From: Rhodospirillaceae bacterium
GTDB taxonomy: Bacteria; Pseudomonadota; Alphaproteobacteria; Rhodospirillales; Rhodospirillaceae
DNA length: 64,000 nucleotides
Reading direction: 5' to 3'
Assembly: GCA_033763995.1 (NCBI GenBank)
Contig: JANRJL010000056.1
Coordinates: 45,718 to 109,717, forward strand
Shown: piece after piece, positions 17,317 to 62,253 of the stretch
How the letters are laid out: each line of letters opens with the position of its first letter
How positions within the stretch are numbered: the first letter of the stretch is position 1
Translations under genes and position numbers: made by a program
Notes under the pieces: model-generated
What the model saw: only the letters and a program-made list of their open reading frames with translations
Told to the model about the DNA's origin: nothing
The model's database searches: none

Positions 17317-18126
17317 CTAAAGTCCGAGCACATCGCGCATGGAATAGAGCCCGGGGCCGCGGCCGCGCGCCCACAGCGCCGCGCGCACGGCGCCCTTGGC
17401 GAAGACCGCGCGCGAGGAGGCCCTGTGCGTGAGCTCGATGCGTTCGCCCTCGGCGGCAAACATGACCGTGTGATCGCCGACCACGTCGCCGCCGCGCAAG
17501 GTGGCAAAGCCGATCTCGCCCGTGGGCCGCGGACCCACCTGGCCGTCGCGCGATTTGCGCCACACGTTGGCCAGCTTGACGTTGCGGCCCTTGGCGGCGG
17601 CCTCGCCCAAACCCAAGGCCGTGCCCGAGGGCGCGTCGACCTTGTGGCGGTGATGCATTTCGAGAATGTCGATATCGTAGTCGGGGCCCAGGGTGGCGGC
17701 GATTTTTTCCGTCACTGCGAACATGACATTCACGCCAAGGCTGAAATTCGGCGCATGAACAACTGCGGCCGTCTTGCCCGCCTCGGCCAAGGCGCCCAGG
17801 ATCGATTCATCGAGCCCCGTGGTGCCGACGATCAACGTCTTGCCGGTCTTGGCGGCGAGCCGCGTGTGCCACAACGTTGCCGCAGGGACAGTAAAGTCGA
17901 TAACCGTGTCGGATACGGCAAACAGCTTCTCGGCATCGGCCATGACCGATACACCGACAGGCTTGGGGCCGACCAACAGGCCCAGATCGCTGCCCACGGC
18001 GGGGCCGGCAGGCTCTGTGCCCCCGGCCAGCATGCAGCCGGGCGTGGCCAGGATCTCTTGAATCAGCATGCGGCCCATGCGGCCGGCGCAGCCGACGATG
18101 CCGATTTTGAGGGGGGACGAGGTCAT
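17317..18126 (-). CDS. dapB: 4-hydroxy-tetrahydrodipicolinate reductase
   Basis: 269 aa. N-terminal Rossmann motif (KIGIVGCAGRMGRML) and the DapB signature EMHHRHKVDAPSGTA. Confidence 0.95.
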   Translation of the reverse strand: MTSSPLKIGIVGCAGRMGRMLIQEILATPGCMLAGGTEPAGPAVGSDLGLLVGPKPVGVSVMADAEKLFAVSDTVIDFTVPAATLWHTRLAAKTGKTLIVGTTGLDESILGALAEAGKTAAVVHAPNFSLGVNVMFAVTEKIAATLGPDYDIDILEMHHRHKVDAPSGTALGLGEAAAKGRNVKLANVWRKSRDGQVGPRPTGEIGFATLRGGDVVGDHTVMFAAEGERIELTHRASSRAVFAKGAVRAALWARGRGPGLYSMRDVLGL

Positions 18127-18473
18127 GGGCGCTCCGAATTTGCGCCTTTATATCTCAATCTCGCGGTCGGGCCATCCCATGAACGGCGTCGTGGCCGCGG
18201 CCATGCAATCGCGTAATCCCTTGGTTATAAAGACTGATTTGGCCTTTCATCGCGGCGGCGCAGACCCCTTACAGCGCCATTAATCAAGGATTTGCGCCAA
18301 AAGGAATTGTATTTTCCTGAAAACCGCCTAGATAGAGACGCCTTGAGTTCTATGCTTCGCCTTGCAAGACACCCTTCCGGGGTCCTCCCAAGACAACGCT
18401 GAATTCGGACACGGCTTCGCGATCGTCGCGCGGCCAAACATACGCATACATGCGTTTTCTAAAGGAGGCCAAC

Positions 18474-18677
18474 ATGGCCAACGGAACGGTAAAGTGGTTC
18501 AACGCCACAAAAGGATTTGGTTTTATTCAGCCCAGCACGGGCGGCAAGGATGTGTTTGTGCACATCAGCGCCGTTGAGCGCGCCGGCTTGAGCACGCTCA
18601 ATGAAGGTCAGGCGATCAGCTATGACGTCGTCAATGAGCGCGGCAAGGATGCCGCCGCCAACCTGAAAGTCAGCTAA
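18474..18677 (+). CDS. cspA: Cold-shock protein (CspA family)
   Basis: MANGTVKWFNATKGFGFIQP...VFVHISAV, with RNP1/RNP2 motifs. AAAGGAGG Shine-Dalgarno sequence just upstream of ATG 18474. Preceded by a 347-nt gene-free leader region. Confidence 0.95.
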   Translation: MANGTVKWFNATKGFGFIQPSTGGKDVFVHISAVERAGLSTLNEGQAISYDVVNERGKDAAANLKVS

Positions 18678-24929: not shown

Positions 24930-25826
24930 TTAATCCACGTAGAGCATCAAGCCGTAATCGGCGATGGCGACGAAGCCCAAGGCGCGGAACAGCTTGTGCG
25001 CATTGGCCTGGGACTTGGGCGTGAGCAGGATGGCCCGGGTCACGCCTTGGTCCTTGAGGCTTTGCAGGGCGCCCGCGACGGCGGCCGCTTCGGGCCCGGT
25101 GCCGCGATGGGCGGCCGGCGTCCACACCCCGTCCAACTGCACGATGCCCGACAGCCGCGCGTCGATCACGCCGATGGCGATGGGCCGGTCGGTTTCCACC
25201 GTGAAGAGTTGGCCGCGCTCGATCAGGCCCTCGGTCTCCTTGGCCACGCTGTCGCGCAAGTCCGGTGTGTTCTTGGCGCCGAAAGATTCGATGAAGCTCG
25301 CGGTGCGCCAGCCCGACGCCCAGCCGTGGTCCTTGGCCGTGAGCACGCGGTAGCGGATTTTTCCCTGCAGCAACGGCGCCGGCACGCGCAGATTGACCAT
25401 GTCGATGGCCATGACGACCTTGGGTGTGCCCGCGAGTTTGCGCCGCTGCGACTTTCCCGCGGCCGTGACCGCGGCCTCGATTTGGTTCCAGGGGCCGACG
25501 AAGCCCGTGACGTTGCGTTTGGACGCGGCGATGGTCGCGCGCACGACACTGGCCAGCGAGCGCGGCGCTTGCACAGCCACCACGCCGTTCCAAAAATGCG
25601 CCGCCACGGCAACCATCGTCGCGCGGTCAAAGGCCGCCGCGTAGGTGCCTTGAAACGGCTGGCCCTGATCGACGATGCCCGCCGCGTGCGCGTTGGCGCG
25701 CAGGATCATGGACGTCGCAAAGTGAAAGCCGAGGAAATCATCGAGCGCCGCTTCATCCCCCGGCATCAGAACGCGGGTGGTGAGCGGCGGTGCGCTGGCT
25801 GAAGACGACGCGATGCCAGCCAACAT
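24930..25826 (-). CDS. GNAT-family N-acetyltransferase (two-lobed, ~300 aa)
   Basis: C-terminal acetyl-CoA binding region (VWTPAAHRGTGPEAAAVAGALQSLKDQGVTRAILLT...NAHKLFRALGF). GGGAGGA Shine-Dalgarno sequence 5 nt upstream of ATG 25826. Confidence 0.75.
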   Translation of the reverse strand: MLAGIASSSASAPPLTTRVLMPGDEAALDDFLGFHFATSMILRANAHAAGIVDQGQPFQGTYAAAFDRATMVAVAAHFWNGVVAVQAPRSLASVVRATIAASKRNVTGFVGPWNQIEAAVTAAGKSQRRKLAGTPKVVMAIDMVNLRVPAPLLQGKIRYRVLTAKDHGWASGWRTASFIESFGAKNTPDLRDSVAKETEGLIERGQLFTVETDRPIAIGVIDARLSGIVQLDGVWTPAAHRGTGPEAAAVAGALQSLKDQGVTRAILLTPKSQANAHKLFRALGFVAIADYGLMLYVD

Positions 25827-25878
25827 GGGTCCTCCCGGTCCGCTGAACGCGGATCACTTGTGGTCTGGTTGTGACGGA

Positions 25879-25990
25879 AGAATAGCAACTATTAGGAGAA
25901 TAGCAAATTATATAAGATCGTTTTAGTAGTAAATAATAACTCAAGGTTAATAGATATTGAGATAAATACAACTTAAAATAAGAAGCGTGA
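25879..25990. other. Strongly AT-rich tract (about 22% GC over 25881..25980 by hand count) with a 10-nt direct repeat
   Basis: AGAATAGCAA occurs at 25879..25888 and 25897..25906. The rest is A/T runs (TATATAAG, AAATAATAA, AAATACAACTTAAAATAAG). Lies between the ASCH gene stop (26130) and the GNAT start (25826). Confidence 0.8.
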
Positions 25991-26129
25991 CCAATTCTTC
26001 CTGCGATTTCAATAGGAGGTGCCGGGGCCTTGGACTTAACAAACGGTCCAGCTAGCCCATTGGTTGCAGCCGGAAGGCTTCGCCAGGGGAAGAAGAGCCG
26101 CTGGGCCGACTCGGCGGGACGCGGACGAA

Positions 26130-40992: not shown

Positions 40993-41616
40993 ATGAAGAA
41001 TTTCATTCGACTCCTTCTCGCCCTCGTGTTGCTGCCCACCGTGGCCCAGGCGCTTAGCCCTGAGGAAACGGCGGCGGTGAAACGCGCCGAGGACTACATG
41101 AACGCGCTCGGCAATTTGCGGGCGCGCTTCCTGCAGGTGAACCCCGACGGCTCGACGCATGAGGGCAACCTCTACGTGGCGCGGCCGGGCAAGATGCGCA
41201 TCAACTACGACCCGCCGGCCGAGATGCTGGTGGTGGCCGACGGCAAATGGCTGATCTACGTCGACAAGGAAGTGGACGAGACCAGCTATCTCGACTTGGA
41301 CGACACGCCCGCCGGACTGCTGCTGAAGGCCGATATTTCCTTCACCGATAAGGCCGTGAAGCTGCAGGGCGTGCGCCTGGGCAAGAACACGGTGGAGATC
41401 ACCGCCGCCCAGGCCAAGGACCCAGCGGCGGGCAAACTCACCTTCGTGTTTTCCGACGCGCCCTTCGAGCTGCGCCAATGGCGCGTGCTGGACGCGCAAA
41501 ACCAAGAGGTGAGCGTGACGCTGTTCGAGCCGCGCTTCGGCGGCGTCCTCGACAATAAATTGTTCGAGCACGAGCAACCCAAGGACACCCGCGACCCGGA
41601 CCGAAGAGGGGATTAG
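40993..41616 (+). CDS. lolA: Outer-membrane lipoprotein carrier protein LolA
   Basis: ATG 40993 gives the signal peptide MKNFIRLLLALVLLPTVAQA. Has FLQVNPDGSTHEGNLYVARPGKMRINYDPP. Conserved ftsK-lolA synteny. Confidence 0.85.
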   Translation: MKNFIRLLLALVLLPTVAQALSPEETAAVKRAEDYMNALGNLRARFLQVNPDGSTHEGNLYVARPGKMRINYDPPAEMLVVADGKWLIYVDKEVDETSYLDLDDTPAGLLLKADISFTDKAVKLQGVRLGKNTVEITAAQAKDPAAGKLTFVFSDAPFELRQWRVLDAQNQEVSVTLFEPRFGGVLDNKLFEHEQPKDTRDPDRRGD

Positions 41617-41651
41617 GTCCTCACCTCGTCCATAGATTCTCGTTTGCCGAC

Positions 41652-42587
41652 TTAAATCTCCAACGCCGCGAGCGCCCGTTGCAGGCGGGGTGCGGCGAAA
41701 TCGATGAAGGCCCGCAGCTTGGGCGCCATGAGCCGCGCGGGCGGATAGATGATCTGCACCGGCAGGGCCGCCGGCTCGAAGCGCGCAAGCACGCGCACCA
41801 GGCGGCGCGCGCGGATGTCCTTGGCCACCATGTACGACAAGGCCGGCACGATGCCTTCGCCCGCCGCGGCGGCGGCGATGGCGGCGGCGGCATCGTTGAC
41901 CTCAAGCCGGGGCGTGAGGGTCACGTGGTGTTCGCCTTTTTTTGCCCTGGCTCCTGTGTCGGCAAAGCGCAGCTCGCGGCCGGGCATGAGGCTGGTGAAA
42001 GCGATCACGTCGTGGCCTTTGAGTTCCGCCGGTGTCTTGGGCGCACCGCGCGCGGCAACGTAAGCTGGGCTTGCCACCAGCACGCGGCGCACGAGGCCCA
42101 AGTGGCGGGCGAGTAGGCTTGAATCCGGCAAGTCGCCAATACGAATTCCGAGATCGAGGCCTTCCTCCACCAGGTTGACCACGCGGTCCAACAGCACGAG
42201 CGAGGCCGTCACGCGCGGGTGGGCCTCGAGAAAGCGCGCGACGACGGGCGTCAGCACCTCGCGGCCGAAGGTAGCGGACGCCGTGATGCGCAAATGGCCT
42301 TGAGGCACGGCTGCCTCCCCGGCCGCGTCCTTCTCGGCCGTCTCGACATCGGCCAGCACGCGCCGGCTTGCCTCCAGGAACCGGGTGCCCGCCTCGGTGA
42401 TAGCCAAGCGACGGGTGGTGCGGGTGAACAACCGCACGCCCAGCCGATCCTCCAGCGTGGCGATGATGCGCGTGACGGCCGGCGGCGAGAGGCGCAAACG
42501 CGCGCCTGCCTTGGCAAAGCCCCCGGCCTCGGCGGCGGCGGCAAACACGGTCATCTCGCGCAGGCGGTCCATGGAGACGTGTCTCAC
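41652..42587 (-). CDS. LysR-family transcriptional regulator
   Basis: 311 aa. HTH (MTVFAAAAEAGGFAKAGARLRLSPPAVTRIIATLEDRLGVRLFTR). Divergent from a detoxification-type operon. Confidence 0.9.
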   Translation of the reverse strand: MRHVSMDRLREMTVFAAAAEAGGFAKAGARLRLSPPAVTRIIATLEDRLGVRLFTRTTRRLAITEAGTRFLEASRRVLADVETAEKDAAGEAAVPQGHLRITASATFGREVLTPVVARFLEAHPRVTASLVLLDRVVNLVEEGLDLGIRIGDLPDSSLLARHLGLVRRVLVASPAYVAARGAPKTPAELKGHDVIAFTSLMPGRELRFADTGARAKKGEHHVTLTPRLEVNDAAAAIAAAAAGEGIVPALSYMVAKDIRARRLVRVLARFEPAALPVQIIYPPARLMAPKLRAFIDFAAPRLQRALAALEI

Positions 42588-42730
42588 TATTCCATTTATC
42601 GGAATAATTTATTGCAAACGTAGGACATTATTTCAATCGGTTGGTTGAGGCATATCTCGGGGCATCGGCGATGGCGGGCCCGAGGGCTTGGCCAGCGCCG
42701 CAACATCAAACCCCAAAGCGGAGAATCCCC

Positions 42731-43276
42731 ATGTCACGCCTCACCGTCATCGACCCCGCCACCGCCACCGGCGAAACCAAGCGGCTTCTGGATGCCGTGA
42801 AAACGGCGCTGGGCGCCGTGCCCAACTTCATCCGCGTGCTCGCCAATTCGCCGGCGGCCTTAGCCGCGTTTCTCGGCCTGCGCGGCATCGCCGGCGCCGG
42901 CGTGCTGGACGCCAAGACACGCGAGCGCATCGCGCTGGCCGTGGCCCAGCAGAACGCCTGCCAGTATTGCGTCTCGGCCCACACCGCCATCGGCCGCAAG
43001 GCGGGCCTGGACACCGCCGAGATGCTGGCGAACCGCCAAGGTAGTTCGACAGACGCCAAAGCCGCCGCCGCCATCGCCTTCGCCAATGCACTGGTGGCCA
43101 ACATGGGCCAGGTGACCAAGGCGGAGTTCGAGGCCGCGCGCAACGCCGGGCATTCCGACGCCGAGCTGGTGGAGATCATCACCCACGTGGCGCTCAACAT
43201 CTTCACCAACCTCTTGGGCAAGGCCACGGAACTTGAGATCGACTTCCCCGTGGTGGAACTGCGCAAGGCCGCGTGA
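42731..43276 (+). CDS. Carboxymuconolactone decarboxylase/AhpD-like family protein
   Basis: ATG 42731 (GGAGAA upstream) gives MSRLTVIDPATATGETKRLLD. CxxC-type motif QQNACQYCVSAHT. Confidence 0.85.
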   Translation: MSRLTVIDPATATGETKRLLDAVKTALGAVPNFIRVLANSPAALAAFLGLRGIAGAGVLDAKTRERIALAVAQQNACQYCVSAHTAIGRKAGLDTAEMLANRQGSSTDAKAAAAIAFANALVANMGQVTKAEFEAARNAGHSDAELVEIITHVALNIFTNLLGKATELEIDFPVVELRKAA

Positions 43277-43321
43277 GTCTGCCGACCCGGAAACCGCCGT
43301 GTTTTTCGCCAGGAGAGGTCC

Positions 43322-43933
43322 ATGGGACATAAGTTCGCCGAGATCGCCTTCAGCGCCGAAGCGAAAGCGTTGCAGGTCCAGCACGGTAGCCGCGACAGCT
43401 ACGCCCGCATGGAAGGCGGCCCGGACGTCAATCATCTTCTGAGCGCGCGCGAGGCCGAGTTCATCGGCGCGCGCGATAGCTTCTATATGGCCACGGTGGG
43501 CGCCAACGGCTGGCCCTACGTGCAGCACCGCGGCGGGCCGGCCGGCTTTGTCCGCGTGCTCGACGAAACCACGCTGGGCTTTGCCGACTTTCGCGGCAAT
43601 CGCCAGTACGTCAGCGTCGGCAACCTCGCGACCGATGATCGCGTCTCGCTGTTTTTCATGGATTACGCCCATCGCCGGCGTCTGAAATTGCTGGGTCGCG
43701 CCGTGATGGTGCCCACCGAGGACACGGGGCTATTGGCGCGGCTGGAACTGCCCGACTATCGCGCGCGGGTGGAACGAGGCATCCTCATCAAGGTCGAGGC
43801 CTTCGACTGGAACTGTCCGCAACACATCACGCCGCGCTTTACCGCCGCCGAGATCGAGCAGGCCGCCCAGCCGCTGCATCGGCGCATCGCGGAGTTGGAG
43901 GCCCAAGCGGCGCGACTGAAAACGGCGGGCTGA
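43322..43933 (+). CDS. Pyridoxamine 5'-phosphate oxidase-family (FMN-binding split-barrel) protein
   Basis: 203 aa. DSFYMATVGANGWPYVQHRGGPAGFVRVLDETTLGFADFRGNRQYVSVGNL is typical of the PNPOx-like split-barrel fold. Confidence 0.8.
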   Translation: MGHKFAEIAFSAEAKALQVQHGSRDSYARMEGGPDVNHLLSAREAEFIGARDSFYMATVGANGWPYVQHRGGPAGFVRVLDETTLGFADFRGNRQYVSVGNLATDDRVSLFFMDYAHRRRLKLLGRAVMVPTEDTGLLARLELPDYRARVERGILIKVEAFDWNCPQHITPRFTAAEIEQAAQPLHRRIAELEAQAARLKTAG

Positions 43934-43964
43934 GGGTGAACAGCGCGAACAAAGGGAAAGACTC

Positions 43965-44564
43965 ATGATCAAACTTTATGACTCGGCCCTGTCGGGCAAC
44001 TGCCACAAGGTGCGCATGATGCTGGGCTTTCTCGGGCTCGCCTATGAGAAGGTCGACATGAACTGGGCTCGGGGCGATCATCGCCTGGACTGGTTTCGCG
44101 CCGTCAATCCGCGCGCGCAGTTGCCCGCTCTCGATGACGCCGGAACCATCGTCTGGGACAGCCAGGCGATCTTGGTTTATCTCGCGCGCAGCCACGGCGG
44201 CGATTCCTGGTTGCCGCTGGAGCCCCTGGCGCTGACGCGCGTCATGCAGTGGCTGATGCTGGCCAACGAGGAAGTACGCGCGCTGTCGTGGGCGCGCGTG
44301 GCCGTGCTGATGAAACAGCCGCGCGACAAGTTGCCGGACTTGCAGGGCGCGGGCCGCGCGGGGCTGGCGGTGTTGGAGCGGCATTTGCAGGGTCACGCCT
44401 GGCTCGCGGCCGATCGCGTCACGATTGCCGATATTGCGTGTTTTCCCTACGTGGGTTTGGCGCCCCAGGGCGAGGTTTCGCTGGACCCCTATCCGGCGGT
44501 GCGGGCCTGGATCGCGCGCATCAAGGCGCTGGCGAATTACGTGCCGATGCCGGGATTGGAATGA
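43965..44564 (+). CDS. Glutathione S-transferase
   Basis: 199 aa. N-terminal thioredoxin-like domain (MIKLYDSALSGNCHKVRMML...QLPALDD..TIVWDSQAILVYLA) and a C-terminal helical domain. Confidence 0.9.
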   Translation: MIKLYDSALSGNCHKVRMMLGFLGLAYEKVDMNWARGDHRLDWFRAVNPRAQLPALDDAGTIVWDSQAILVYLARSHGGDSWLPLEPLALTRVMQWLMLANEEVRALSWARVAVLMKQPRDKLPDLQGAGRAGLAVLERHLQGHAWLAADRVTIADIACFPYVGLAPQGEVSLDPYPAVRAWIARIKALANYVPMPGLE

Positions 44565-44815
44565 GCCCAGGCCCACGCCATTACGTCAGTACCCATGCCG
44601 CATGTTGCGGCGCGGTCTCGCTTAGAACGGTTCTAATGGCTTGATTCGTCATGGAATTTGGCGCGCGATCACATCGGCGCGACCGTGTCGATTTTTCGCC
44701 GGCGCATTCTTGAGATTGCCGCGCGGCACCCCATATCATTTCCACAAACGTCGGCGCCGCAATGGTGCCTACGGGCCGGTTGTCGGTATCCCCTGCCGAA
44801 TCGGCCATCCAAAGA

Positions 44816-44854
44816 GCGCCCGGTGTTTCCCCCAAGCACCGGGCGCATTTTTTT
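44816..44854 (+). terminator. Strong intrinsic terminator with no obvious cognate gene
   Basis: GCGCCCGGTG-(11-nt loop)-CACCGGGCGC followed by A and then seven T residues. It is 252 nt after the GST stop and 40 nt before the xthA ATG. On the minus strand there is no T-tract. Confidence 0.7.
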
Positions 44855-44893
44855 GTGTTCAGGGCCGCGGTTCCGCGCCATGACAACGCCCCC

Positions 44894-45712
44894 ATGGCAA
44901 ACTTTCGCATTCTCTCCTGGAACATCAACTCCGTCCGCAAGCGGTTGGATCATCTGGCGCGCATCGCCGAGACTACTGCGCCCGACGTGATCTGCCTGCA
45001 GGAGACCAAGGCGGCGGACAGGGACTTTCCGGCTGAGGCCGTGCGCGCGCTGGGCTTCGACCATGCCGCGATTTACGGATTCGGCGGTTACAACGGTGTC
45101 GCGATTTTATCGCGGCATCCCTTGAGCGACGTGCGCCGCCACGCCCGGCGCGGCAAGGACGACGGCCGGCACATCAGCGCGCGCGTCACGCCCCAGGGCG
45201 GCGCTGCCATCTCGGTGCATTCAATCTACGTGCCCGCCGGCGGCGAGGAGCCCGACCCGCGCGTCAATGCGAAGTTCGCCGACAAGCTCGCGTTCATCGA
45301 CGATGCCGCCGATTGGTTCGCGGCCGAGCACGGGTTTCGCGATCGCGTGGTGCTCACGGGCGATCTCAACATCGCGCCCCTGCCCAGCGACGTGTGGGAC
45401 CATCACAAGATGCAAAAGCGCATCGGCCACACGGACCATGATATCGCGGCACTGGACCGCCTGCGCCGTTCGCTCAACTGGGTGGACGCGGTGCGCGAGA
45501 TCATTCCGCCCGACGATCCGGTGTTTACGTGGTGGAGTTACCGGCAATCTGAGTTTCGCGTCGACAGCCGGGGCTGGCGGCTCGACCACATTTGGGTCTC
45601 GCCGGGGCTGAAAGAGAACATCCAAAGCGCGGAGGTGTTGGTGGACGTGCGTCACTGGACGCCGGCCTCCGACCACGCGCCGGTGGTGGTGAGTTTGGCG
45701 GACTATTGGTAA
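44894..45712 (+). CDS. xthA: Exodeoxyribonuclease III
   Basis: ATG 44894 gives MANFRILSWNINSVRKRL...VICLQETK. Has LTGDLNIAP and C-terminal SDHAPVV. Confidence 0.93.
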   Translation: MANFRILSWNINSVRKRLDHLARIAETTAPDVICLQETKAADRDFPAEAVRALGFDHAAIYGFGGYNGVAILSRHPLSDVRRHARRGKDDGRHISARVTPQGGAAISVHSIYVPAGGEEPDPRVNAKFADKLAFIDDAADWFAAEHGFRDRVVLTGDLNIAPLPSDVWDHHKMQKRIGHTDHDIAALDRLRRSLNWVDAVREIIPPDDPVFTWWSYRQSEFRVDSRGWRLDHIWVSPGLKENIQSAEVLVDVRHWTPASDHAPVVVSLADYW

Positions 45713-46188
45713 ATCGTGATCGTGAACTCACCGCTGCGGCTAAAGTTCATGTCGCAGCGCTTAAGAATATCCATGCCCACAATGACGTCGAATCCAGCGT
45801 TGCTCTCGATAGCAATCGCGTCTTGCGGCAGAGCAAGTTGGAAATAGGTTTCGCCGTTCTCGTCATGCGGCCGACCGAGAGGCTTGCAGAAAAATCCGAG
45901 ATAAAACCAATACCGGCGATGCGGCCATGTTCCACCCGCGCCAGTGACATCAAGCTTGCCGTGACTCGTCAGCCCCAGTTGCGAAACGGCATTATGCGAA
46001 ATGGCCGACATTTGCGCGCCCCTGTCGACCAGGCCTAGGTAGCTCGCGACCTGGTACTGTGCCGGGACGAAAACGGGTTGAACGGCCGGAGCTTGCGGCA
46101 GGAACTCCCTTAGACCAACGCGAACGATCGCCTGATCATTTACGATCGTGCCCGAGACTTCCCACATGAGAATAAAACCCGAGGTCAA
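45703..46188 (-). CDS. Retropepsin-like (clan AA) aspartic protease homolog with DRG in place of D[TS]G
   Basis: LGLVDRGAQMSAIS...LGL (residues 51-) and the C-terminal FDVIVGMDILKRC match the bacterial retropepsin-like pattern. The Arg codon AGG is at 46023..46021. The start may be ATG 46167. The stop overlaps the xthA 3' end by 10 nt. About 53% GC. Confidence 0.6.
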   Translation of the reverse strand: MTSGFILMWEVSGTIVNDQAIVRVGLREFLPQAPAVQPVFVPAQYQVASYLGLVDRGAQMSAISHNAVSQLGLTSHGKLDVTGAGGTWPHRRYWFYLGFFCKPLGRPHDENGETYFQLALPQDAIAIESNAGFDVIVGMDILKRCDMNFSRSGEFTITIYQ

Positions 46189-46405
46189 TCGGCGTCACGG
46201 TCACTTTTTGAATCGAGAAGAGGCCGTCGGGGAATTTTTTATAGCCTTCGATCAGGGCCGCAACGGACGTGTCGTAAAACGAATCGACCTGTTGATGCCG
46301 CAGCAGCGCGTGTTGGCCGGCGTGTTCGGCCATCAAGCTTGCGACGACGCCTTGGAAGTAATCGAAATTGCGGTCCACTTCCGCTTCATGCTCTTGAATA
46401 TTCAT
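46136..46405 (-). CDS. Small (89-aa) protein of unknown function, upstream partner of the protease homolog
   Basis: GGGGAG Shine-Dalgarno sequence upstream of ATG 46405. It overlaps the downstream gene by 32-53 nt. The pattern GQHALLRHQQVDSFYDTSVAALIEGYKKFPDGLFSIQKVT resembles small antitoxin-like proteins, by recollection only. Low GC like its partner. Confidence 0.5.
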   Translation of the reverse strand: MNIQEHEAEVDRNFDYFQGVVASLMAEHAGQHALLRHQQVDSFYDTSVAALIEGYKKFPDGLFSIQKVTVTPIDLGFYSHVGSLGHDRK

Positions 46406-46495
46406 CGCGGCTCCCCACTGCTCAACGCCAAAATACCACGTATCGAGTCGTGGGTGAATCCTCTAAATCGTTCAATGAGTTAAGAGGTTAGCCCC

Positions 46496-47554
46496 TCACA
46501 CCCCATAAAACCTGGCCGCGTTGGGCCCGACGATCTTGGCCGCGACGCCCGCGCCCAGATCCTTGCGCGCCAGCAGCACCTCGTGGGCGGCGAGTTCGGT
46601 GGACGTGTCGGCGTGGCCGTAGTCGGTGCCGAGCATCAGGTTGTCCTCGCCCGCGGTGCGCAGCACTTGCGGCAGGTCCTCGTGGATTTCGCAGGTGACG
46701 AAAAACCGCAGGTCCGAGAGCATTTTTTCGGTGCGGTCCTTCTCGCCGAAGCGCTTGGCCCAGCGCCGCGTCCGGTTGACGGCGAAGGGCAGCCATTCGG
46801 ACCCGCCCTCGATGAAGCCGAAGCGCAGTTTCGGGAATTTGGTCGGCACCTCGCTGGCCATGAGCGCGCTGAAGGCCACCATGGTGGGCATGATGGTGGC
46901 GACGATATTGCCGCGAATGCCGGTGCCGTGGGCGATATTATGAAACGACGGGCTGGTGGTGCCGATGTGCACGCAGACCGGCATGTCGAGATCCTGGGCC
47001 TTGGCGTAGATCGGATAGAGATCGGGGTCGTCGAGCGCGCGGTCGCCCTCGTAGCCGCGCAGCAGCACGCCGCAGGCGCCGTGCTGTTGGCCCCAGGCGA
47101 TCTCGGCGAGCGAGGCATCCATCAGGCGCGGGGCGGGCACCACCAGCCAGCGCATGCGGCCCTTGGTGGGCGCGCACACATCGGCGAGCCAGCGGTTGTA
47201 GGCCTTAGACAGCGCCATTTCAGCGGCGGGATTCTTGACCACGAGATTGAGAAAAACGCTGGGGTAAATCACCTGCTTGTCCACACCCAAACGGTCCATG
47301 TGGGCGATGCGCGCGGGAACGTCGGTCAAGTCGCGCGTGCCCGGCGCGTACATGTCGGTCGGCAATCCGCCCAGGCCGTACATCTTGCCGTCGATCAACC
47401 AGAACTTGCGCCCCGACATGGCGCGTTGCTTGAACGCCTCGGGCACCTCGTCCATGGTGATGGTGGCGGGGCGATGGATCGCGTCGTCCTTCGCCAGGTA
47501 ATCCCAAATGCAGGCGGCTTCGACCACATGGGTATCGGCATCGATGATGGGCAT
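46496..47554 (-). CDS. Amidohydrolase-2 family metal-dependent hydrolase/decarboxylase
   Basis: ATG 47554 (GGAG 8 nt upstream) gives MPIIDADTHVVE (the metal-binding DxH). Also has HIGT and MLGTDYGHAD. The track ORF to 47773 is over-extended. Confidence 0.85.
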   Translation of the reverse strand: MPIIDADTHVVEAACIWDYLAKDDAIHRPATITMDEVPEAFKQRAMSGRKFWLIDGKMYGLGGLPTDMYAPGTRDLTDVPARIAHMDRLGVDKQVIYPSVFLNLVVKNPAAEMALSKAYNRWLADVCAPTKGRMRWLVVPAPRLMDASLAEIAWGQQHGACGVLLRGYEGDRALDDPDLYPIYAKAQDLDMPVCVHIGTTSPSFHNIAHGTGIRGNIVATIMPTMVAFSALMASEVPTKFPKLRFGFIEGGSEWLPFAVNRTRRWAKRFGEKDRTEKMLSDLRFFVTCEIHEDLPQVLRTAGEDNLMLGTDYGHADTSTELAAHEVLLARKDLGAGVAAKIVGPNAARFYGV

Positions 47555-47593
47555 GGCTGGCTCCGAATGAATCATTGGCGGCACCGTGCACCC

Positions 47594-49111
47594 ATGACCG
47601 GAAAAAGGAAATGCAATCCGGCGCGGTGGTTCGCATGCTGGGCGTTGGCCCTGCTGTTGACGGCGCCCGCCGTCGGCGCCATGGCCGCGACCTTGAAAAT
47701 CGCCGCCGGGTCCATGCCCGAGAATTGGGGCAATCCCTTCGCCTCCACTTCCATTACGCGGCTGCCGCTGCAATCGGCGGTGTTCGACGCGCTGACTTTT
47801 GTCGATTCGACCGGCGCGCTCACGCCCTGGCTGGCGACAAGCTGGGACCGCACCGGCCCCACGGCCTGGACGATCCGGCTGCGGAAAAACGTGACCTTCT
47901 CCAACGGCACCGCGCTGACGGCGGCGGGCGTGGTGGCGGCTTTCGATTACCTGTCGAGCGAGCAGGGCAAGCGCGAAGCCGTGGGCCGCGAGCTGGTGGA
48001 CATCGTTTCGACCAAGGTCGTTGACGATCTATCTTTCACGCTCGAAACCCGCGTGCCCGATCCGCTGTTGCCTTATCGGCTGTCGCTGGTGACGATTCCC
48101 GAGCCCAATTTGTGGCGCGCGATGGGCCGCGAGGCGTTTCAGAGGGCCCCCATCGGCACCGGGCCCATGACATTGGGTCGTGTCGAGCGCAACCGGCTGG
48201 AGCTCATCAAGAACCCGTCGTCGTGGCGCAAGGCGTTGATCGAGGGCGCCACGTTCTTGATTCTGCCGGAACCGGCGCAGCGGCGCACGGCGCTGGTCAC
48301 GGGTGCCGCCGACGTGGCCATCACCGCCGTGCTGCCGTCAGAGTTCGACGATTTGCGCGCCGAGGGCGGCAGCATTTTGATCGACCGCATTCCCGCCGTG
48401 GTGGCGGTGGCCTTCAACACCCAGATGTTCGCAGCCTTTCGCGACGCGCGCGTGCGCCGGGCCATCACCCATGCGGTCAACCGCGAGGCGATTGTGGCCG
48501 CCATCATGGGCGGCGAGACGGTGGTGGCCAGCCAACCGGCGGGGCGCAGTTGGTTCGGCTACAACCCCGATCTCAAGCCGCTGGCCTACGATCCCGACAA
48601 GGCGCGGGCGTTGTTGCACGAGGCCGGTTACGAAAAAGGCTTCGCCTTCGAGTTTCTCTTTCCCTCGGGCGCCGTGGCCTACCCCGATGTGTTCCAGACC
48701 GTGGCGGCGGACCTGGCGCGCGTGGGCATCGTCATGACCTCGCGCTCGGTGCCGCAGCAGAAGTTGTTCGAGAACATCCAGACCGGCGTGTGGGACGCGC
48801 CCGCCGCGGCGATTCCGTTTTCCACGCCGGTGTTCGACGCGCTCTATCCGCAGCGCCAGCATTCGTGCCTGTGGCATGCGCCGTGGTTCTGCGACCGGGA
48901 TTTTTCAGACGGCGTCGCGGCCGCCTTCAACGAGGGCGACACCGAGCGCCGCCGCGCCGCCACACAGGCTCTCATGGCGCGTGCCCACGACATGGCCCAG
49001 GCGCTGTTCTTGTATGAAACCGTGTCCTTCACGGGCCTGGGTCCGCGCGTGGAGGCCTTTCCCATGGACTTCAGTTTCATCCGCTACGAGGGCGTGAAAC
49101 TGAAGGACTGA
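47594..49111 (+). CDS. ABC transporter substrate-binding protein, family 5 (peptide/nickel type), no cognate permease or ATPase nearby
   Basis: In-frame ATG 47594 within the 842-aa track ORF gives MTGKRKCNPARWFACWALALLLTAPAVGAMA, a signal peptide. The body (FSNGTALTAAGVVAAFDY, NPDLKPLAYDPDKARALLHEAGY) is typical of SBP_bac_5. Confidence 0.85.
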   Translation: MTGKRKCNPARWFACWALALLLTAPAVGAMAATLKIAAGSMPENWGNPFASTSITRLPLQSAVFDALTFVDSTGALTPWLATSWDRTGPTAWTIRLRKNVTFSNGTALTAAGVVAAFDYLSSEQGKREAVGRELVDIVSTKVVDDLSFTLETRVPDPLLPYRLSLVTIPEPNLWRAMGREAFQRAPIGTGPMTLGRVERNRLELIKNPSSWRKALIEGATFLILPEPAQRRTALVTGAADVAITAVLPSEFDDLRAEGGSILIDRIPAVVAVAFNTQMFAAFRDARVRRAITHAVNREAIVAAIMGGETVVASQPAGRSWFGYNPDLKPLAYDPDKARALLHEAGYEKGFAFEFLFPSGAVAYPDVFQTVAADLARVGIVMTSRSVPQQKLFENIQTGVWDAPAAAIPFSTPVFDALYPQRQHSCLWHAPWFCDRDFSDGVAAAFNEGDTERRRAATQALMARAHDMAQALFLYETVSFTGLGPRVEAFPMDFSFIRYEGVKLKD

Positions 49112-49187
49112 GAGCAAAGCCGCGCCTTGCGGACGAGCCGCAAAACCCCCATCTTGAACCCCACACCAACAAGAATCACGCACAATC

Positions 49188-49739
49188 ATGATGGCTTCCA
49201 ACGACCCCACCAACTGGCACGGCACGACGATTTTGTCCGTCCGCAAGGGCGGCAAGGTGGTGATCGCCGGCGACGGTCAGGTGAGCTTCGGCAACACCGT
49301 CATCAAATCCAACGCCCGAAAAGTCAGGCGCTTGGCCGACGGCGCCATTCTGGCGGGCTTCGCGGGGGCCACGGCCGACGCCTTCACTTTGTTCGAGCGC
49401 CTGGAAGCCAAGCTGGAAAAACACCCGGGGCAATTGATGCGCGCCTGCGTGGAGCTGGCCAAGGACTGGCGCACGGACCGTTACTTGCGCCGGCTCGAGG
49501 CCATGATGGCGGTCGCCGACAAGGATGTGTCGTTGATCCTCACGGGCACGGGCGACGTGCTGGAGCCGGAAGACGGCCTGATCGGCATCGGCTCTGGCGG
49601 ATCCTTCGCCCTGGCCGCCGCCCGCGCCTTGATCGACCAGGACAGCCTCAGCGCCGAGGCCATCGCGCGCAAGGCCATGGGCATCGCCGCCGATATTTGC
49701 GTGTTCACCAACCGCGAAGTCGTGGTTGAACTTTTATGA
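49188..49739 (+). CDS. hslV: ATP-dependent protease subunit HslV
   Basis: [23 protein letters not shown]. The catalytic Thr is preceded by a 12-residue N-terminal extension. GSGG motif present. Confidence 0.95.
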
Positions 49740-51055
49740 CAACCACCAGCGCTTTCTCCCCCCGCGAGATCGTGTCCGAACTGGACCGTTTCATCATCGG
49801 CCAGAACGACGCCAAGAAGGCCGTGGCGATTGCTTTGAGAAATCGCTGGCGGCGCCAGCAGTTGCCCGAAGGCTTGCGCGAAGAGGTGATGCCCAAGAAC
49901 ATCCTCATGGTGGGTCCCACCGGCGTGGGCAAGACCGAAATCGCGCGGCGCCTGGCGAAGCTGGCCAACGCACCGTTCCTGAAGGTCGAGGCCACCAAGT
50001 TCACCGAGGTGGGCTACGTCGGCCGCGACGTGGATTCCATCGTGCGCGATCTGGTGGAAATCGCCATTACCATGACGAAGGAGCGCCTGCGCAAGGAGGT
50101 CACGGCCAAGGCCGAGATGGCCGCCGAGGACCGCGTGCTCACCGCGCTCGTGGGCGACAACGCCACGCCCGAGACGCGCCAGAAATTCCGCAAGATGCTG
50201 CGCGAGGGCGCGCTGGCCGAACGCGAAATCGAAATTCAAGTGCAGGAGCCCGTGAGCGCGGCAATGCCCGCGATGGACGTGCCCGGCATGCCCGGCGCCT
50301 CCATGAGTATGATCAACTTGTCCGAAATGCTGGGCGGCATGCTGGGCAATCGCACCAAGGCCCGCAAGATGACCGTGGCGCAATCCTACGAGACGCTGCT
50401 GCGCGAGGAATCGGAAAAGCTGCTGGATCAGGAGCGCGTCACGCGCGAGTCCATCGCCGCGGTGGAGAACAACGGCATCGTGTTTTTGGACGAGATCGAC
50501 AAGATCACCGGCCGCGAGGACGTGCGCGGCGCCGACGTGAGCCGCGAGGGCGTGCAGCGCGACCTGCTGCCCTTGATCGAGGGCACGACGGTCAACACCA
50601 AGCACGGCGCAGTGAAGACGGATCACGTCTTATTCATTGCCTCGGGCGCGTTCCACTTGGCCAAGCCTTCGGACCTGCTGCCGGAACTGCAGGGCCGACT
50701 GCCCATTCGCGTGGAGCTGAAGGCGCTGACGCGCGATGACTTCGTGCGCATTCTGACGCAGACCGAAGCGAGCCTGATCAAGCAGTACAAGGCGCTGCTG
50801 GGCACCGAGAACGTGACGCTGGAGTTCGGCGACGACGCCATCGGCGCCATCGCCGACCTGGCCGCCGAGATCAATAAAAGCGTCGAGAACATCGGCGCGC
50901 GGCGCCTGCACACGGTCATGGAAAAACTGCTGGAAGAGATCAGCTTCACCGCCACGGACCGGGCGGGAGAAACCTTCCAGGTCGACGCGGCCTACGTGAA
51001 GACCCAGGTGGGCGACCTCGCCAAGAAAGGCGACCTGAGCAAGTTTATCTTGTGA
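49736..51055 (+). CDS. hslU: ATP-dependent protease ATPase subunit HslU
   Basis: 439 aa. [15 protein letters not shown], Walker [16 protein letters not shown], Walker [13 protein letters not shown] overlap with hslV. Confidence 0.97.
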
Positions 51056-51063
51056 AGTTAATT

Positions 51064-51150
51064 GGAGCTTTTCCCCGACAAGTGGGGACCGGTTGGCCCA
51101 AGAAAACAAGTCGGTGGAAATGCGACCAAAAAGAATCGGGTTTGATTCTA
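51064..51150. repeat. Dispersed intergenic repeat, copy B, with a terminal 6-bp hairpin
   Basis: GGAGCTTTTCCCCGACAAGTGGGGACCGGTTGGC[CCAAGAAAACAAGTCG]GTGGAAATGCGACCAAAAAGAATCG followed by the hairpin AGAATC-GGGTTT-GATTCT. The right arm runs into the TetR stop codon (CTA 51148..51150). Confidence 0.8.
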
Positions 51151-51762
51151 GTGCCTGACTCTGGCCTTGCGTGCCTTGGCGCGCGGCTTCGCGCCCAGCA
51201 ACCTCACAGCTTCCCGGCGACACGCGTCGAGAACCGCTTTGGCAGTTGCGGGCGTGTCCGCCGTGCGCGCGATGGTCACGCCCCCGATGCACAACGCCAG
51301 CACCGCCAGCGTGCGGGGATCCTGCGCGGCACCGGTCATGCCGCGCTTGAGTTGGCCCGCCAAATCTTCGACCACGTGGGTCAAGGCCGCGCGGCCCGCG
51401 TGGCCCGCTTTGTCGACGTCGCGCGACAGGCTCACCATGGGGCAGGTGGAGGCCACATGGGGCACCCGCGCGGGGTCGAGATAGTTGCCCAAGACCTCGA
51501 GCGCGCTGTCCATCAGCTCGCCGCGGGTTTCGCCGGGGCGCTGGGCGAGCATGCGATTGAAGGCCGGTTCCACCGCCAAGACATCGGCGAACAGCGCGGC
51601 CTTGGAGGCGAAGTGGGCATAAAAGCCGCCGCGCGTGAGGCCCGCCTTGGCCATGATCGTGTCGATGCCCACGCCGTCGTAGCCGTGGCGGCGAAATAAT
51701 TCGCCGGCGGCGTCGATAATTTTGCGGCGGCTTTGGTCTTTATGGGCCTTGGACAGGGGCAT
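51148..51762 (-). CDS. TetR/AcrR-family transcriptional regulator
   Basis: 204 aa. N-terminal HTH (RRKIIDAAGELFRRHGYDGVGIDTIMAKAGLTRGGFYAHF). Confidence 0.9.
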   Translation of the reverse strand: MPLSKAHKDQSRRKIIDAAGELFRRHGYDGVGIDTIMAKAGLTRGGFYAHFASKAALFADVLAVEPAFNRMLAQRPGETRGELMDSALEVLGNYLDPARVPHVASTCPMVSLSRDVDKAGHAGRAALTHVVEDLAGQLKRGMTGAAQDPRTLAVLALCIGGVTIARTADTPATAKAVLDACRREAVRLLGAKPRAKARKARVRH

Positions 51763-59571: not shown

Positions 59572-60411
59572 TTAGGTCGCCGCGTGGCGTTGATGATGCA
59601 GCTGAATGATCGTCGCCGCCGTTTCCTCGATGGAGCGGCGCGTGACGTCGATCACCGGCCAGCCGTGCTTGGTGAACAGCCGGCGCGATTCGGCCACTTC
59701 CTCGCGCACGTTGTCGATGTTGGCGTAATTTTCCCCGCGCGTGTCGTTCATGATGCGCAGGCGGCTTTGACGGATGTCGCTGAGACTCTTGGGCTCGCGC
59801 GTCAGGCCCACGATGAGGGGCTTGGCCGCGTGAACGATCTCGTCGGGCAACACCAGGCCCGGCACCAGCGGAATGTTGGCCACCTTGTAGCCGCGATTGG
59901 CGAGATACATGCAGGTGGGCGTCTTGGAGGTGCGCGACACGCCGATCAGGATGACGTCGGCCTCGGTCATGGTGGCCATGGATTGGCCGTCGTCGTGTTG
60001 CATGGCGAAGTGCATGGCGTCGATGCGCTGAAAGTAGCCGTCGTCCATGACGTGCTGGCGGCCGATCTCGCTGGAGGCCTCGCGCTTGAAGTAGCGCCCC
60101 AAGGCCTGCATGACGGGATCGAGCGCCGAGACGGCGGGAATTTTCAATTCGCGGCAGGCTTTTTCCAACAGCACGCGAACCTCGGAATCGAGCAGCGTGT
60201 AAATCACCAGGCCCGGCGATTGTCGGATGCCCTCGATGACGCGGCCCATTTGCCCGGCGGTCCGGATCAGCCACCACGAATGCTCGCTCACCGGCGTGCC
60301 TTCGTATTGCACCAAACACGCGCGCGCGATGTTGGTCACCGTCTCGCCCGACGAGTCGGAGACAAGATGCAAATTGTAAGGGGCCGGCGCGGGCTTGGGA
60401 TCGGTCAACAT
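59572..60411 (-). CDS. Pyruvate,phosphate/water dikinase regulatory protein family (DUF299, RP001-type) kinase/phosphorylase
   Basis: ATG 60411 gives MLTDPKPAPAPYNLHLVSDSSGETV. P-loop GVSRTSKTPTCMYLA. The track ORF to 60510 is over-extended. First gene of the conserved DUF299-maf-aroE-coaE-dnaQ cluster. Confidence 0.9.
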   Translation of the reverse strand: MLTDPKPAPAPYNLHLVSDSSGETVTNIARACLVQYEGTPVSEHSWWLIRTAGQMGRVIEGIRQSPGLVIYTLLDSEVRVLLEKACRELKIPAVSALDPVMQALGRYFKREASSEIGRQHVMDDGYFQRIDAMHFAMQHDDGQSMATMTEADVILIGVSRTSKTPTCMYLANRGYKVANIPLVPGLVLPDEIVHAAKPLIVGLTREPKSLSDIRQSRLRIMNDTRGENYANIDNVREEVAESRRLFTKHGWPVIDVTRRSIEETAATIIQLHHQRHAAT

Positions 60412-60499
60412 GACCTCATTTAGCCCTTGGGATGGAATAAGGACAACGGGGATAACACCCGGTTCTCCCCGATCTTCCAATAAATCACCCCGGCATGGC

Positions 60500-60800
60500 G
60501 TCTTTTCCACGGTGTTTCATCCTGGCGTCATCCGGCTGATTGGCGGGTTGGGAAAAAGGTGAATCCGACGCCGGGTTGAAAATCGTCCCACGGTTATCCG
60601 TCATGCGCGGAGTGAAGAATCGTCAATGGAGTCAGGGCCTGGCAAAAACCATCCACGATTCCATCACGATTATTTTTTCTGCGCGAGCGATAATGCGCAT
60701 ATGTGGATAGTCATGGGTTTATGTGAATCCCCATGATTCAGGGGTCCTACTACCGCTTCCATTCTCTTATTAAGAATCTTTATAAGAGTAGAAGGACAGC
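60500..60800. other. Candidate chromosomal replication origin (oriC)
   Basis: Lies in the largest gene-free region in the window (60412..60990). DnaA-box-like 9-mers: TGTGGATAG (60702..60710, which is CTATCCACA, 8/9), TTTTCCACG (60503..60511, 7/9), CCATCCACG (60649..60657, 6/9) and TGTGAATCC (60722..60730, 6/9). A/T-rich tracts at 60669..60680 and 60761..60793. Its position upstream of the DUF299 gene matches the conserved alphaproteobacterial origin context. Genes diverge from this point. Confidence 0.4.
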
Positions 60801-60990
60801 CGGGATGAATAACGTCTTCTAAACCCGTTTGACTTTGGCCGGGTCGTCGGCTAGGTATGGACCCGTCTAATCAAGGTCGGTTCCGACCTGTCCTTTCAAG
60901 TCTTCACGCCTGTTTCGTGTCCCGCCGCCCGGCGGATCAAAGGCGTTGGCTTTCTCCCCACGCGTCGCTCCAACTCACGGCACACATCCC

Positions 60991-62253
60991 ATGCATCTTT
61001 CAGAACTCAAGCGTAAACCACCGGCCGAGCTTCTCGCCTTCGCCGAGGAGTTGGGCATCGAGAACGCCTCGAATCTGCGCCGCCAGGACATGATGTTCGC
61101 GATCCTCAAGGTGCTGGCCGAGAAGGACACCACCATCGAGGGCGACGGCGTGCTGGAAATCCTCCAGGACGGCTTCGGCTTCCTGCGTTCGGCGCAGGCG
61201 AATTACCTGCCGGGGCCCGACGACATCTACGTCTCGCCCAGCCAAGTGCGCCGCTTCAGCCTGCGCACCGGCGACACGGTGGAAGGCCCGATCCGCGGCC
61301 CCAAGGAAGGCGAGCGCTACTTCGCGCTGCTGAAGGTCGACCGCATCAACTTCGAGGACCCCGACAAGGTCCGCCACCGCATCAACTTCGACAACCTGAC
61401 GCCGCTCTATCCCGACAAGAAGTTGACGATGGAGGTCGAGCAAAAAGACACCAAGAACAAGGACCTGACCGCCCGCGTCATCGAGCTGGTGGCGCCCCTG
61501 GGCAAGGGTCAGCGCGCGCTGATCACCGCCCAGCCGCGCACCGGCAAGACCATCATGCTGCAAAACATCGCCAACGCGGTCGCGGCCAACCACCCGGAAG
61601 TTTACCTGATCGTGCTGCTGATCGACGAGCGGCCCGAGGAAGTCACCGACATGGCCCGTACCGTGAAGGGCGAAGTGGTCAGCTCGACCTTCGACGAACC
61701 GGCCTCGCGCCACGTCCAGGTGGCCGAGATGGTGATCGAGAAGGCCAAGCGCTTGGTGGAACACAAGCGCGACGTGGTGATCCTGCTCGATTCCATCACG
61801 CGCCTCGCGCGTGCCTACAACACCGTGGTGCCCAGCTCGGGCAAGGTGCTGACGGGCGGCGTCGACGCCAACGCGCTGCAGCGGCCGAAACGATTCTTCG
61901 GTGCCGCGCACAATATCGAGGAAGGCGGCTCGCTGACCATCATCGCCACGGCGCTGATCGACACCGGCAGCCGCATGGATGAAGTGATCTTCGAGGAATT
62001 CAAGGGCACCGGTAACTCGGAAATCATTCTCGACCGCAAGCTTTCCGACAAGCGCGTGTTCCCGTCGATCGACATCACCAAGTCGGGCACCCGCAAGGAA
62101 GAGCTGCTGGTTCGCCAGGATCAACTGTCGAAGATGTGGGTGCTGCGCCGCATTCTCGATCCCATGGGCGTCCAGGACGGCATGGAGTTCCTGCTCGACA
62201 AACTGCGCGAAACCAAGAACAACAACGAATTCTTCGACCGCATGAACAAGTAG
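60991..62253 (+). CDS. rho: Transcription termination factor Rho
   Basis: ATG 60991 gives [30 protein letters not shown]-binding domain ([23 protein letters not shown]) and Walker A (PRTGKT). 420 aa. The track ORF from 60946 is over-extended. Confidence 0.97.

Follow-up and report, generated by a model that had tools for sequence, protein, structure and literature searches.

Positions 45703 to 46405 of a 64,000-nucleotide stretch of a Rhodospirillaceae metagenome-assembled genome (MAG; contig JANRJL010000056.1), the whole of which is called the window here, hold two short overlapping genes on the minus strand, lodged between xthA and an amidohydrolase gene. The first (SFV19_10055, 46136..46405), taken from the list of open reading frames (ORFs), encodes an acidic protein of 89 amino acids (aa) that is identical to the NCBI protein. 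The second (SFV19_10050, 45703..46167), placed from its ORF and the NCBI annotation, encodes a predicted cytoplasmic homolog, 154 aa long, of the retropepsin-like aspartic proteases, and it too is identical to its NCBI counterpart. They are referred to as the small gene and the protease gene. The two share 32 nt (46136..46167), the protease gene being in the +1 frame relative to the small gene. An initial annotation, made from the sequence alone, had seen in them a toxin-antitoxin-like architecture, and the description fits: the genes are small, co-directional and overlapping, and they prove to be obligately paired.

Gene overlap and the two products

Where does the protease gene begin? The initial annotation gave a product of 161 aa and an overlap of 32–53 nt, the larger values coming from a longer ORF (45703..46188, minus strand) that opens with TTG. 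We dropped the TTG at 46188 in favor of the ATG at 46167 because NCBI annotates 154 aa and because this ATG is kept in all 67 distinct homologous loci. The true start is almost certainly the ATG, giving 154 aa and a 32-nt overlap; the 53-nt figure is unsupported.

The ATG (46165..46167, minus strand) is built from the last two bases of a CAT codon in the small gene plus the G that follows. That codon specifies His80, the final residue of a motif in the tail of the small protein, D74-L-G-F-Y-S-H80 (46166..46186, minus strand), which we propose to be a substrate or pseudo-substrate with F77-Y78 as the putative scissile pair. Across the 67 loci the motif reads D-L-G-F-[YF]-S-[HY]. Since the protease ATG begins within it, its last codon is CAT or TAT in every locus, with a G directly after it; CAC and TAC do not occur. 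Elsewhere in the motif synonymous sites vary freely (six codons for Leu, four for Gly, six for Ser) while the amino acids are kept, pointing to selection on the peptide and not on the RNA. The sequence after the motif is variable, and hence the overlap ranges from 8 to 32 nt in the family, with a length that is always congruent to 2 modulo 3. Met1 of the protease is at least 90% conserved in an alignment of 110 sequences, and in the window sequence no Shine-Dalgarno element precedes it. The arrangement supplies a family-wide rule by which the module can be annotated, namely a tail motif whose final His or Tyr codon holds the start of the protease.

A protease that always overlaps the upstream gene, and always in the +1 frame, could also be read as the second half of a gag-pro-like polyprotein made by +1 ribosomal frameshifting, that is, as the relic of a retroelement, the more so as its best Pfam family is named gag-asp_proteas. 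We find this scarcely credible. The protease keeps an independent ATG in 67 of 67 loci, the region of its start and the overlap shows no significant RNA structure (z = +0.72), an Rfam scan of positions 45000–47000 at E ≤ 1 returned no match, and no reverse transcriptase or integrase family occurs among the Pfam-annotated neighbors in the contexts examined.

Taken singly, the window protease is hard to place. It scores under the Pfam cut-offs both for PF13975 (22.2 bits, E 2e-4, cut-off 28.2) and for PF13650 (20.3 bits, E 9e-4, cut-off 24.3); NCBIfam and PHROGs gave nothing usable for either window protein, and a single-sequence search with the protease found only three homologs. A profile built from these three, together with the partner genes lying beside distant homologs of the small protein, retrieved 341 proteins, mostly carriers of PF13650 or PF13975. 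Of the 110 aligned relatives, every one hits PF13975 (E ≤ 0.01) and 31 hit TIGR03698; the family profile matches the protease domain of Ddi1 (E 4.5e-6). An AlphaFold2 (AF2) model of the protease (predicted local distance difference test score, pLDDT, 91; predicted template modeling score 0.84) retrieved with Foldseek the Rickettsia protease APRc (5c9f, E 1.5e-4) as well as the Rous sarcoma virus protease (2rsp), 1bai, the feline immunodeficiency virus protease, 3ogp and Ddi1, all with probability 1.00. On this profile and model evidence the assignment to the retropepsin fold, already made in the initial annotation, is sound.

The second retropepsin signature, hh-G-x-D (h, hydrophobic), falls at G131-M132-D133 (45769..45777, minus strand), where a C-terminal GMD segment had been noted earlier. 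It reads I-V-G-M-D in the window and aligns with LIGLDML of Ddi1; among the 110 sequences G131 and M132 never vary, and 106 have D133. We take these residues to be equivalent to G86-R87-N88 of human immunodeficiency virus 1 (HIV-1) protease. With the clan AA retropepsins (APRc, the RVP domain of Ddi1 and the retroviral enzymes; Pfam PF13975/PF13650, NCBIfam TIGR03698/TIGR02281) the protein shares the single-lobe fold, the hh-G-M-D segment and, in its relatives, hh-D-T-G-A. By analogy it is presumed to work as a homodimer that forms one substrate cleft. It departs from them in three respects. APRc is membrane-anchored whereas the window protease, about 150 aa long, is predicted to be soluble and has an additional beta-hairpin at its N-terminus; the module's protease always overlaps the gene of a dedicated small partner; and in the window copy R replaces the T of the catalytic triad, and the scores fall under the PF13975 and PF13650 thresholds. 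The characterized retropepsin-like enzymes of bacteria that the literature search brought up, APRc and RimB/Rlo, are either anchored in the membrane or secreted, and neither has a small partner of this kind (PMC4140852, PMC12239564); small retropepsins of archaea have been linked to type III CRISPR loci (PMC3973734).

Across the module the small protein is acidic and about 88 aa long. The window copy has no family match of its own in Pfam, NCBIfam, PADLOC or PHROGs. A single-sequence search found 13 close homologs, and a profile search of 1.84 billion representatives found 1405 relatives at E ≤ 1e-3 (438 at E ≤ 1e-10), the 1405 being representatives clustered at 50% identity. PF18929 (DUF5678) is matched weakly by 31 of 99 relatives (best E 9.1e-5) and not by the window protein. 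The AF2 model (pLDDT 79) has a long N-terminal helix, a hairpin-helix-strand core and a disordered tail (residues 76–89, pLDDT under 50). With Foldseek it aligned to DUF5678 proteins of BFVD (TM-score 0.56–0.61, probability 1.0, E about 1e-2); neither a sequence profile nor Foldseek gave a significant match in the Protein Data Bank (PDB). These weak matches suggest a core that is distantly DUF5678-like, to which the protein adds the long N-terminal helix and the D-L-G-F-[YF]-S-[HY] tail. We know of no function for DUF5678, and a full-text literature search on it turned up nothing relevant. The pair gives a first functional handle on a DUF5678-like family without literature. Four relatives (P0134, P0136, P0145 and P0162; 168–234 aa) carry small-protein domains in tandem within one polypeptide, with tails that are degenerate or missing. 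The tandem forms hint that the globular domain works as a dimer; as their tails are inconsistent they were not used as support for one tail per dimer.

Pairing, distribution and decay of the module

The pair recurs in more than 140 loci. The small gene lies directly upstream in seven of seven database contexts seeded with the protease, and among 65 genome loci seeded with the small protein it precedes and overlaps the protease gene, the downstream partners having been called by hidden Markov model searches. At protease-seeded metagenome loci it is present in 72 of 80; seven of the other eight contigs are too short upstream to tell, so that pairing holds in 72 of the 73 that can be evaluated. 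The two genes are thus an obligate pair across many genomes and constitute a widespread, unannotated two-gene module, and the co-occurrence that the initial annotation had proposed to look for is found in three independent samples, of database, genome and metagenome loci.

Hosts span at least nine phyla (Alphaproteobacteria, Myxococcota and 'delta' lineages, Chloroflexota, Acidobacteriota, Gemmatimonadota, Nitrospirota, Latescibacterota, Methylomirabilota, Fibrobacterota and Binatota), and 83 loci fall into 35 context groups. Copies are found inserted between trmE and gidA and between tctA and tctC, as well as next to an IS1595 transposase and next to hicB. On this larger scale the module is clearly accessory. 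In L016:3647-7110 and L089:1021-4520, one copy sits directly 3' of an IS1595-family transposase gene and 5' of genes for faint DUF4145 and HTH_3 proteins, and another between the tctA and tctC genes of an operon for a tripartite tricarboxylate transporter.

Some positions recur. In about 22 genomes of Sphingomonadales (within L021–L059) the pair lies beside lolA and xthA in the order small gene, protease gene, lolA, xthA, and about 10 genomes of the order have a second, paralogous type at or between trmE (mnmE) and gidA (mnmG) (L013–L015, L042, L063, L071–L075, L080). The association with lolA-xthA is therefore seen in two alphaproteobacterial orders in differing arrangements, the window pair being convergent on the 3' end of xthA.

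Is the module a defense system? Proximity to defense islands had been suggested as a check, and it came out negative: the annotated contexts are flanked by housekeeping genes and none is a defense island. A connection is offered all the same by PDC-M08, a two-gene phage-defense candidate in PADLOC that was proposed by 'guilt by embedding' (Payne et al., bioRxiv 10.1101/2024.01.29.577857). Its B component is a homologous retropepsin-like protein, and of our 110 protease relatives 77 hit the PDC-M08B model, with a best E of 8.4e-7. PDC candidates are embedded in BREX, DISARM and type I restriction-modification (R-M) loci (same source), and our module has occasional neighbors of mobile or defense type, namely hicB, the IS1595 transposase and the faint DUF4145 protein with its helix-turn-helix (HTH) companion. 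One can accordingly picture an abortive-infection system akin to PDC-M08 in which infection removes or titrates the small protein and frees the protease. We regard this as improbable. The window protease matches PDC-M08B only at E 0.03; the small protein matches no PADLOC model, PDC-M08A included, at E ≤ 10, which means that the module is not PDC-M08 as defined; the loci examined are not within R-M, BREX or DISARM systems; and PDC-M08 is itself a candidate without experimental validation.

The two genes do not decay equally. Of 62 evaluable genome loci seeded with the small protein, 15 have a protease gene that is frameshifted, truncated or deleted; the small gene is intact in 14 of these, and in the remaining one both genes are partial. 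The small gene is damaged or absent in two of 69 protease-seeded loci. The asymmetry is significant (Fisher p = 4e-4) in a comparison that mixes two seeds and two databases and in which some frameshifts may be MAG errors. Preferential decay of the protease is the pattern expected of a toxin-antitoxin module. Two cultured isolates, Sphingomonas naasensis KIS18-15 and Sphingomonas sp. ZT3P38 (L028 and L059), have a frameshifted protease gene behind a small gene that is intact.

The two proteins also diverge in step. Their pairwise divergences correlate with a Spearman coefficient of 0.83, and in Sphingomonadales mean pairwise identity is 44% and 57% for the pair as against 66% for lolA and 75% for xthA. 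The pair co-evolves as a unit, and faster than its lolA and xthA neighbors.

Active site and history of the window copy

The catalytic triplet of the window protease is encoded by GAC AGG GGC (46018..46026, minus strand) and reads D48-R49-G50 in place of the consensus D-T-G. The Arg codon, AGG at 46023..46021, had been reported in the initial annotation and is read directly from the sequence. The segment is L-V-D-R-G-A, so the hh-D-[TS]-G-A motif is not matched. Among the 110 database homologs the three catalytic columns hold D in 109, T in 108 and G in 110, and R occurs in the window copy alone. All intact partners across the 65 genome loci are D-T-G, as are 69 of 70 distinct metagenome homologs, the other being D-A-G. 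Non-DTG sequences overall come to one N-T-G (which keeps the Thr), two D-A-G and the window D-R-G. The two closest relatives (L001 and L002, 64–76% identical) have D-T-G with an ACT codon, and the window protein's other departures from the family consensus are common to close relatives, leaving R49 as one private change in an intact gene. D-R-G is unique to the window contig and is no feature of the family.

What does the Arg mean? In HIV-1 protease the same Thr forms the 'fireman's grip' between the subunits, and enzymes mutated at T26 are inactive monomers. By that analogy a buried Arg would be expected to be at least as damaging. The initial annotation allowed two meanings, an inactivated enzyme or a repurposed binding scaffold. 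Inactivation is plausible. A non-catalytic scaffold held under selection might be read from the intact ORF and from the low ratio of nonsynonymous to synonymous substitution (dN/dS 0.07 relative to L002; nonsynonymous and synonymous differences per site, pN and pS, 0.14 and 0.72). That ratio, however, reflects a long shared history and not the time since the mutation, and no clade carries R: no other instance is found among the 110 database proteins, the partners at the 65 genome loci and the 70 metagenome proteins. Since R is found in no other homolog and is private to one contig, a recent disabling mutation or a fault in the MAG consensus is far likelier than a repurposed scaffold, which we consider very unlikely.

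The error reading, a consensus or assembly error that conceals a real D-T-G gene and an active protease, has a small but real chance of being right. The substitution rests on a single MAG consensus (the protein is the sole member of its cluster and comes from one contig), the gene is in all other respects intact and conserved, every other deviation is common to close relatives, and one base change converts ACG to AGG. No positive sign of error was found, however. The relatives' ACT is two changes away from AGG, albeit with synonymous sites at saturation, and members of the family often have a naturally inactivated protease. D-R-G is thus most likely a one-off disabling mutation or an error, with no new active-site chemistry. 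The window copy would then most likely be a disarmed module, with the small gene intact and the protease catalytically dead, unless the MAG is in error.

The description of the pair as a low-GC cassette is borne out. G+C content (GC) is 0.52–0.61 across 45700–46500 and 0.62–0.72 outside (200-nt windows). By gene it is 0.559 and 0.522 for the pair, 0.651 for xthA and 0.654 for the amidohydrolase; at third codon positions (GC3) the values are 0.645 and 0.611, 0.832 and 0.873. The pair had further been called the only compositionally foreign unit in the window. It is not the sole GC dip, as others of equal or greater depth (down to 0.52) occur at about 18.1–18.4, 25.5–25.9 and 60.2–60.6 kb. These sit on or beside intergenic gaps, upstream of a cold-shock gene (18450–18677), upstream of rho (60946–62253) and near 25.8–26.0 kb, in or near gaps between plausible genes, and the pair is therefore still the sole low-GC coding unit of the window. 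The regions concerned (about 18100–18450, 25500–26050 and 60200–60950) resemble AT-richer leader or regulatory regions rather than foreign genes.

Low GC need not mean recent arrival. Across the family the mean GC of the pair is 10.6 points under that of its flanks and is the lower in 64 of 66 loci. It stays near 0.5 over a host range of 0.39 to 0.73, even where the pair has been inherited vertically through saturated synonymous divergence. Being family-wide, the deficit is not a sign of recent transfer. Something else must uphold the composition, and selection for weak expression or silencing is one candidate.

Relatives have the pair at the same junction. In the window the order (region 41095–51762) is lolA ... 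xthA, the pair, the amidohydrolase gene ... hslV-hslU. In L001 it is an amidohydrolase gene (81% identical), the pair, hicB and xthA; in L002–L005 it is hslU-hslV, the pair and xthA-lolA. The protease gene and xthA (44891–45712, plus strand; identified by PF03372, E 1.4e-29) converge with a 10-nt overlap of their 3' ends (45703..45712, both strands), as had been noted, and the same 10-nt overlap is found in L002–L005. The gene upstream of the pair belongs to Pfam family Amidohydro_2. Synonymous sites are saturated between the window, L001 and L002–L005 lineages, and the low GC3 of the pair is kept in all three.

The conserved junction and the saturated divergence rule out a recent horizontal insertion at xthA, so that the horizontal acquisition supposed earlier is not supported as a recent event: the closest available relatives have the pair at the xthA junction with the same GC deficit. 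The initial annotation had itself offered a shared locus and composition in all relatives as the mark of an ancient core pair. The comparison goes part of the way to that, since the pair is old at the locus, yet it is accessory on a larger scale. As judged from these sequences, it is a long-standing resident of the xthA junction in the window's lineage and no fresh insertion. For the window itself this means that the cassette is real and accessory-like, yet old where it stands. In L001 a HicB-like antitoxin gene (L001:2166-2609; PF15919/PF15970) lies between the protease gene and xthA, and the junction seems to collect small genes of toxin-antitoxin type.

Possible function

Obligate, translationally linked pairing in a layout that favors more of the upstream product, a conserved flexible tail, joint fast divergence and one-sided decay suggest that the two proteins interact as a conflict-type pair and that the protease is the partner which is dispensable or dangerous. 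Our preferred reading is a toxin-antitoxin-like module with the protease as effector and the tail of the small protein lodged in its cleft, the window copy being old at the xthA junction and disarmed by the T-to-R change. We put its probability at roughly 0.45. The protease would be a potentially harmful effector. The small protein would be made in excess from a good ribosome-binding site; a Shine-Dalgarno-like GGGGAG (46411..46416, minus strand), read from the sequence, ends 5 nt before its ATG. Its hydrophobic Phe-Tyr/Phe tail, entering the active-site cleft as a pseudo-substrate or slowly cleaved substrate, would restrain the protease; aspartic proteases bind hydrophobic P1-P1' pairs of the Phe-Tyr/Phe kind. 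Loss of the small protein would free the protease onto cellular targets, and the T-to-R allele of the window would be one more route to disarming the toxin. We give somewhat less weight to a fuller version: that this would be the first family of toxin-antitoxin or abortive-infection systems to use a retropepsin-like aspartic protease as toxin, with the small protein plugging the single cleft of the dimer by means of a genetically hard-wired C-terminal pseudo-substrate peptide, the final codon of which also serves to start the protease.

The resemblance to type II toxin-antitoxin systems is considerable. Two short genes overlap and run in the same direction; the product of the upstream one is small and acidic, and its C-terminal tail is conserved and disordered; the spread is patchy and over many contexts, stable as the pair has been at two loci in Sphingomonadales; GC is under that of the host; and it is the downstream, 'toxin' gene that decays preferentially. 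The differences are that the upstream protein has no recognizable DNA-binding domain and that there are no plasmid matches. None of the toxin families described to our knowledge consists of aspartic proteases, and the papers searched brought up none. Literature searches found no retropepsin linked to a toxin-antitoxin system or to an antitoxin, no paper describing a pair of a small protein and a retropepsin-like protease, and no PDC-M08 work relevant to the pair.

Several observations weigh against the toxin-antitoxin-like reading, in addition to the mixed sampling of the decay figures and the single MAG behind the Arg codon. In the first place, Pfam and NCBIfam find no ribbon-helix-helix (RHH), HTH, AbrB or Phd domain in the small protein, there is no PDB fold match, and the median isoelectric point (pI) of its family is 5.1. 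Autoregulation in the type II style is thus unsupported, though DNA binding by an unrecognized domain would still be possible. The protease, for its part, is not basic (pI about 6.4). Secondly, tblastn with the window small protein found none in 72,556 plasmids or 50,697 phages, and only four of the 2.9 million viral contigs of IMG/VR carry a relative. Finally, in Sphingomonadales the module has long been stable at lolA-xthA and trmE-gidA, which makes it steadier than many toxin-antitoxin modules and fits a physiological role.

Such a role is the substance of the most serious alternative, a dedicated protease-substrate or regulatory pair without any toxin, in which the small protein would be turned on or off by trimming at the Phe-Tyr/Phe bond, or would serve as an adaptor or chaperone, in some housekeeping or stress function. 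It would account for vertical persistence at those two sites in Sphingomonadales and, in the clade of the window, at the xthA junction, for housekeeping neighbors in place of defense islands, and for strong purifying selection on both genes, pN being far under pS for the small gene too when compared with its relatives. Moreover, the bacterial retropepsin-like proteins APRc and RimB/Rlo have physiological roles (PMC4140852, PMC12239564). That said, were the protease required for maturation of the small protein, its loss should entail loss of the small gene, whereas 14 loci keep an intact small gene with a broken or deleted protease gene. The patchy spread, with its 35 contexts in at least nine phyla, the persistent GC deficit of the family, and the rapid, concerted evolution of the pair relative to its neighbors likewise count against it. 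On balance we judge it somewhat unlikely, if a good deal less so than abortive infection.

If the proposed toxin-antitoxin-like mechanism is true, aspartic proteolysis would join the toxin activities of bacterial two-gene conflict modules. The pair would also provide a compact natural retropepsin controlled by a dedicated peptide-tail inhibitor, which would bear on the regulation and origins of proteases of the retroviral type.

Some minor features complete the picture. A promoter scan of the 90-nt spacer found no sigma-70 consensus promoter, and the only terminator-like structure in it is a single weak hairpin that is within chance expectation. A search for direct or inverted repeats flanking the cassette as marks of insertion gave only short chance matches. 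In two viral contigs with a relative, nearby ORFs look terminase-like as judged by eye (L085:4701-5694 and L087:4980-5261), no protease partner being detected in L087; the module may occasionally ride on phages or prophages.

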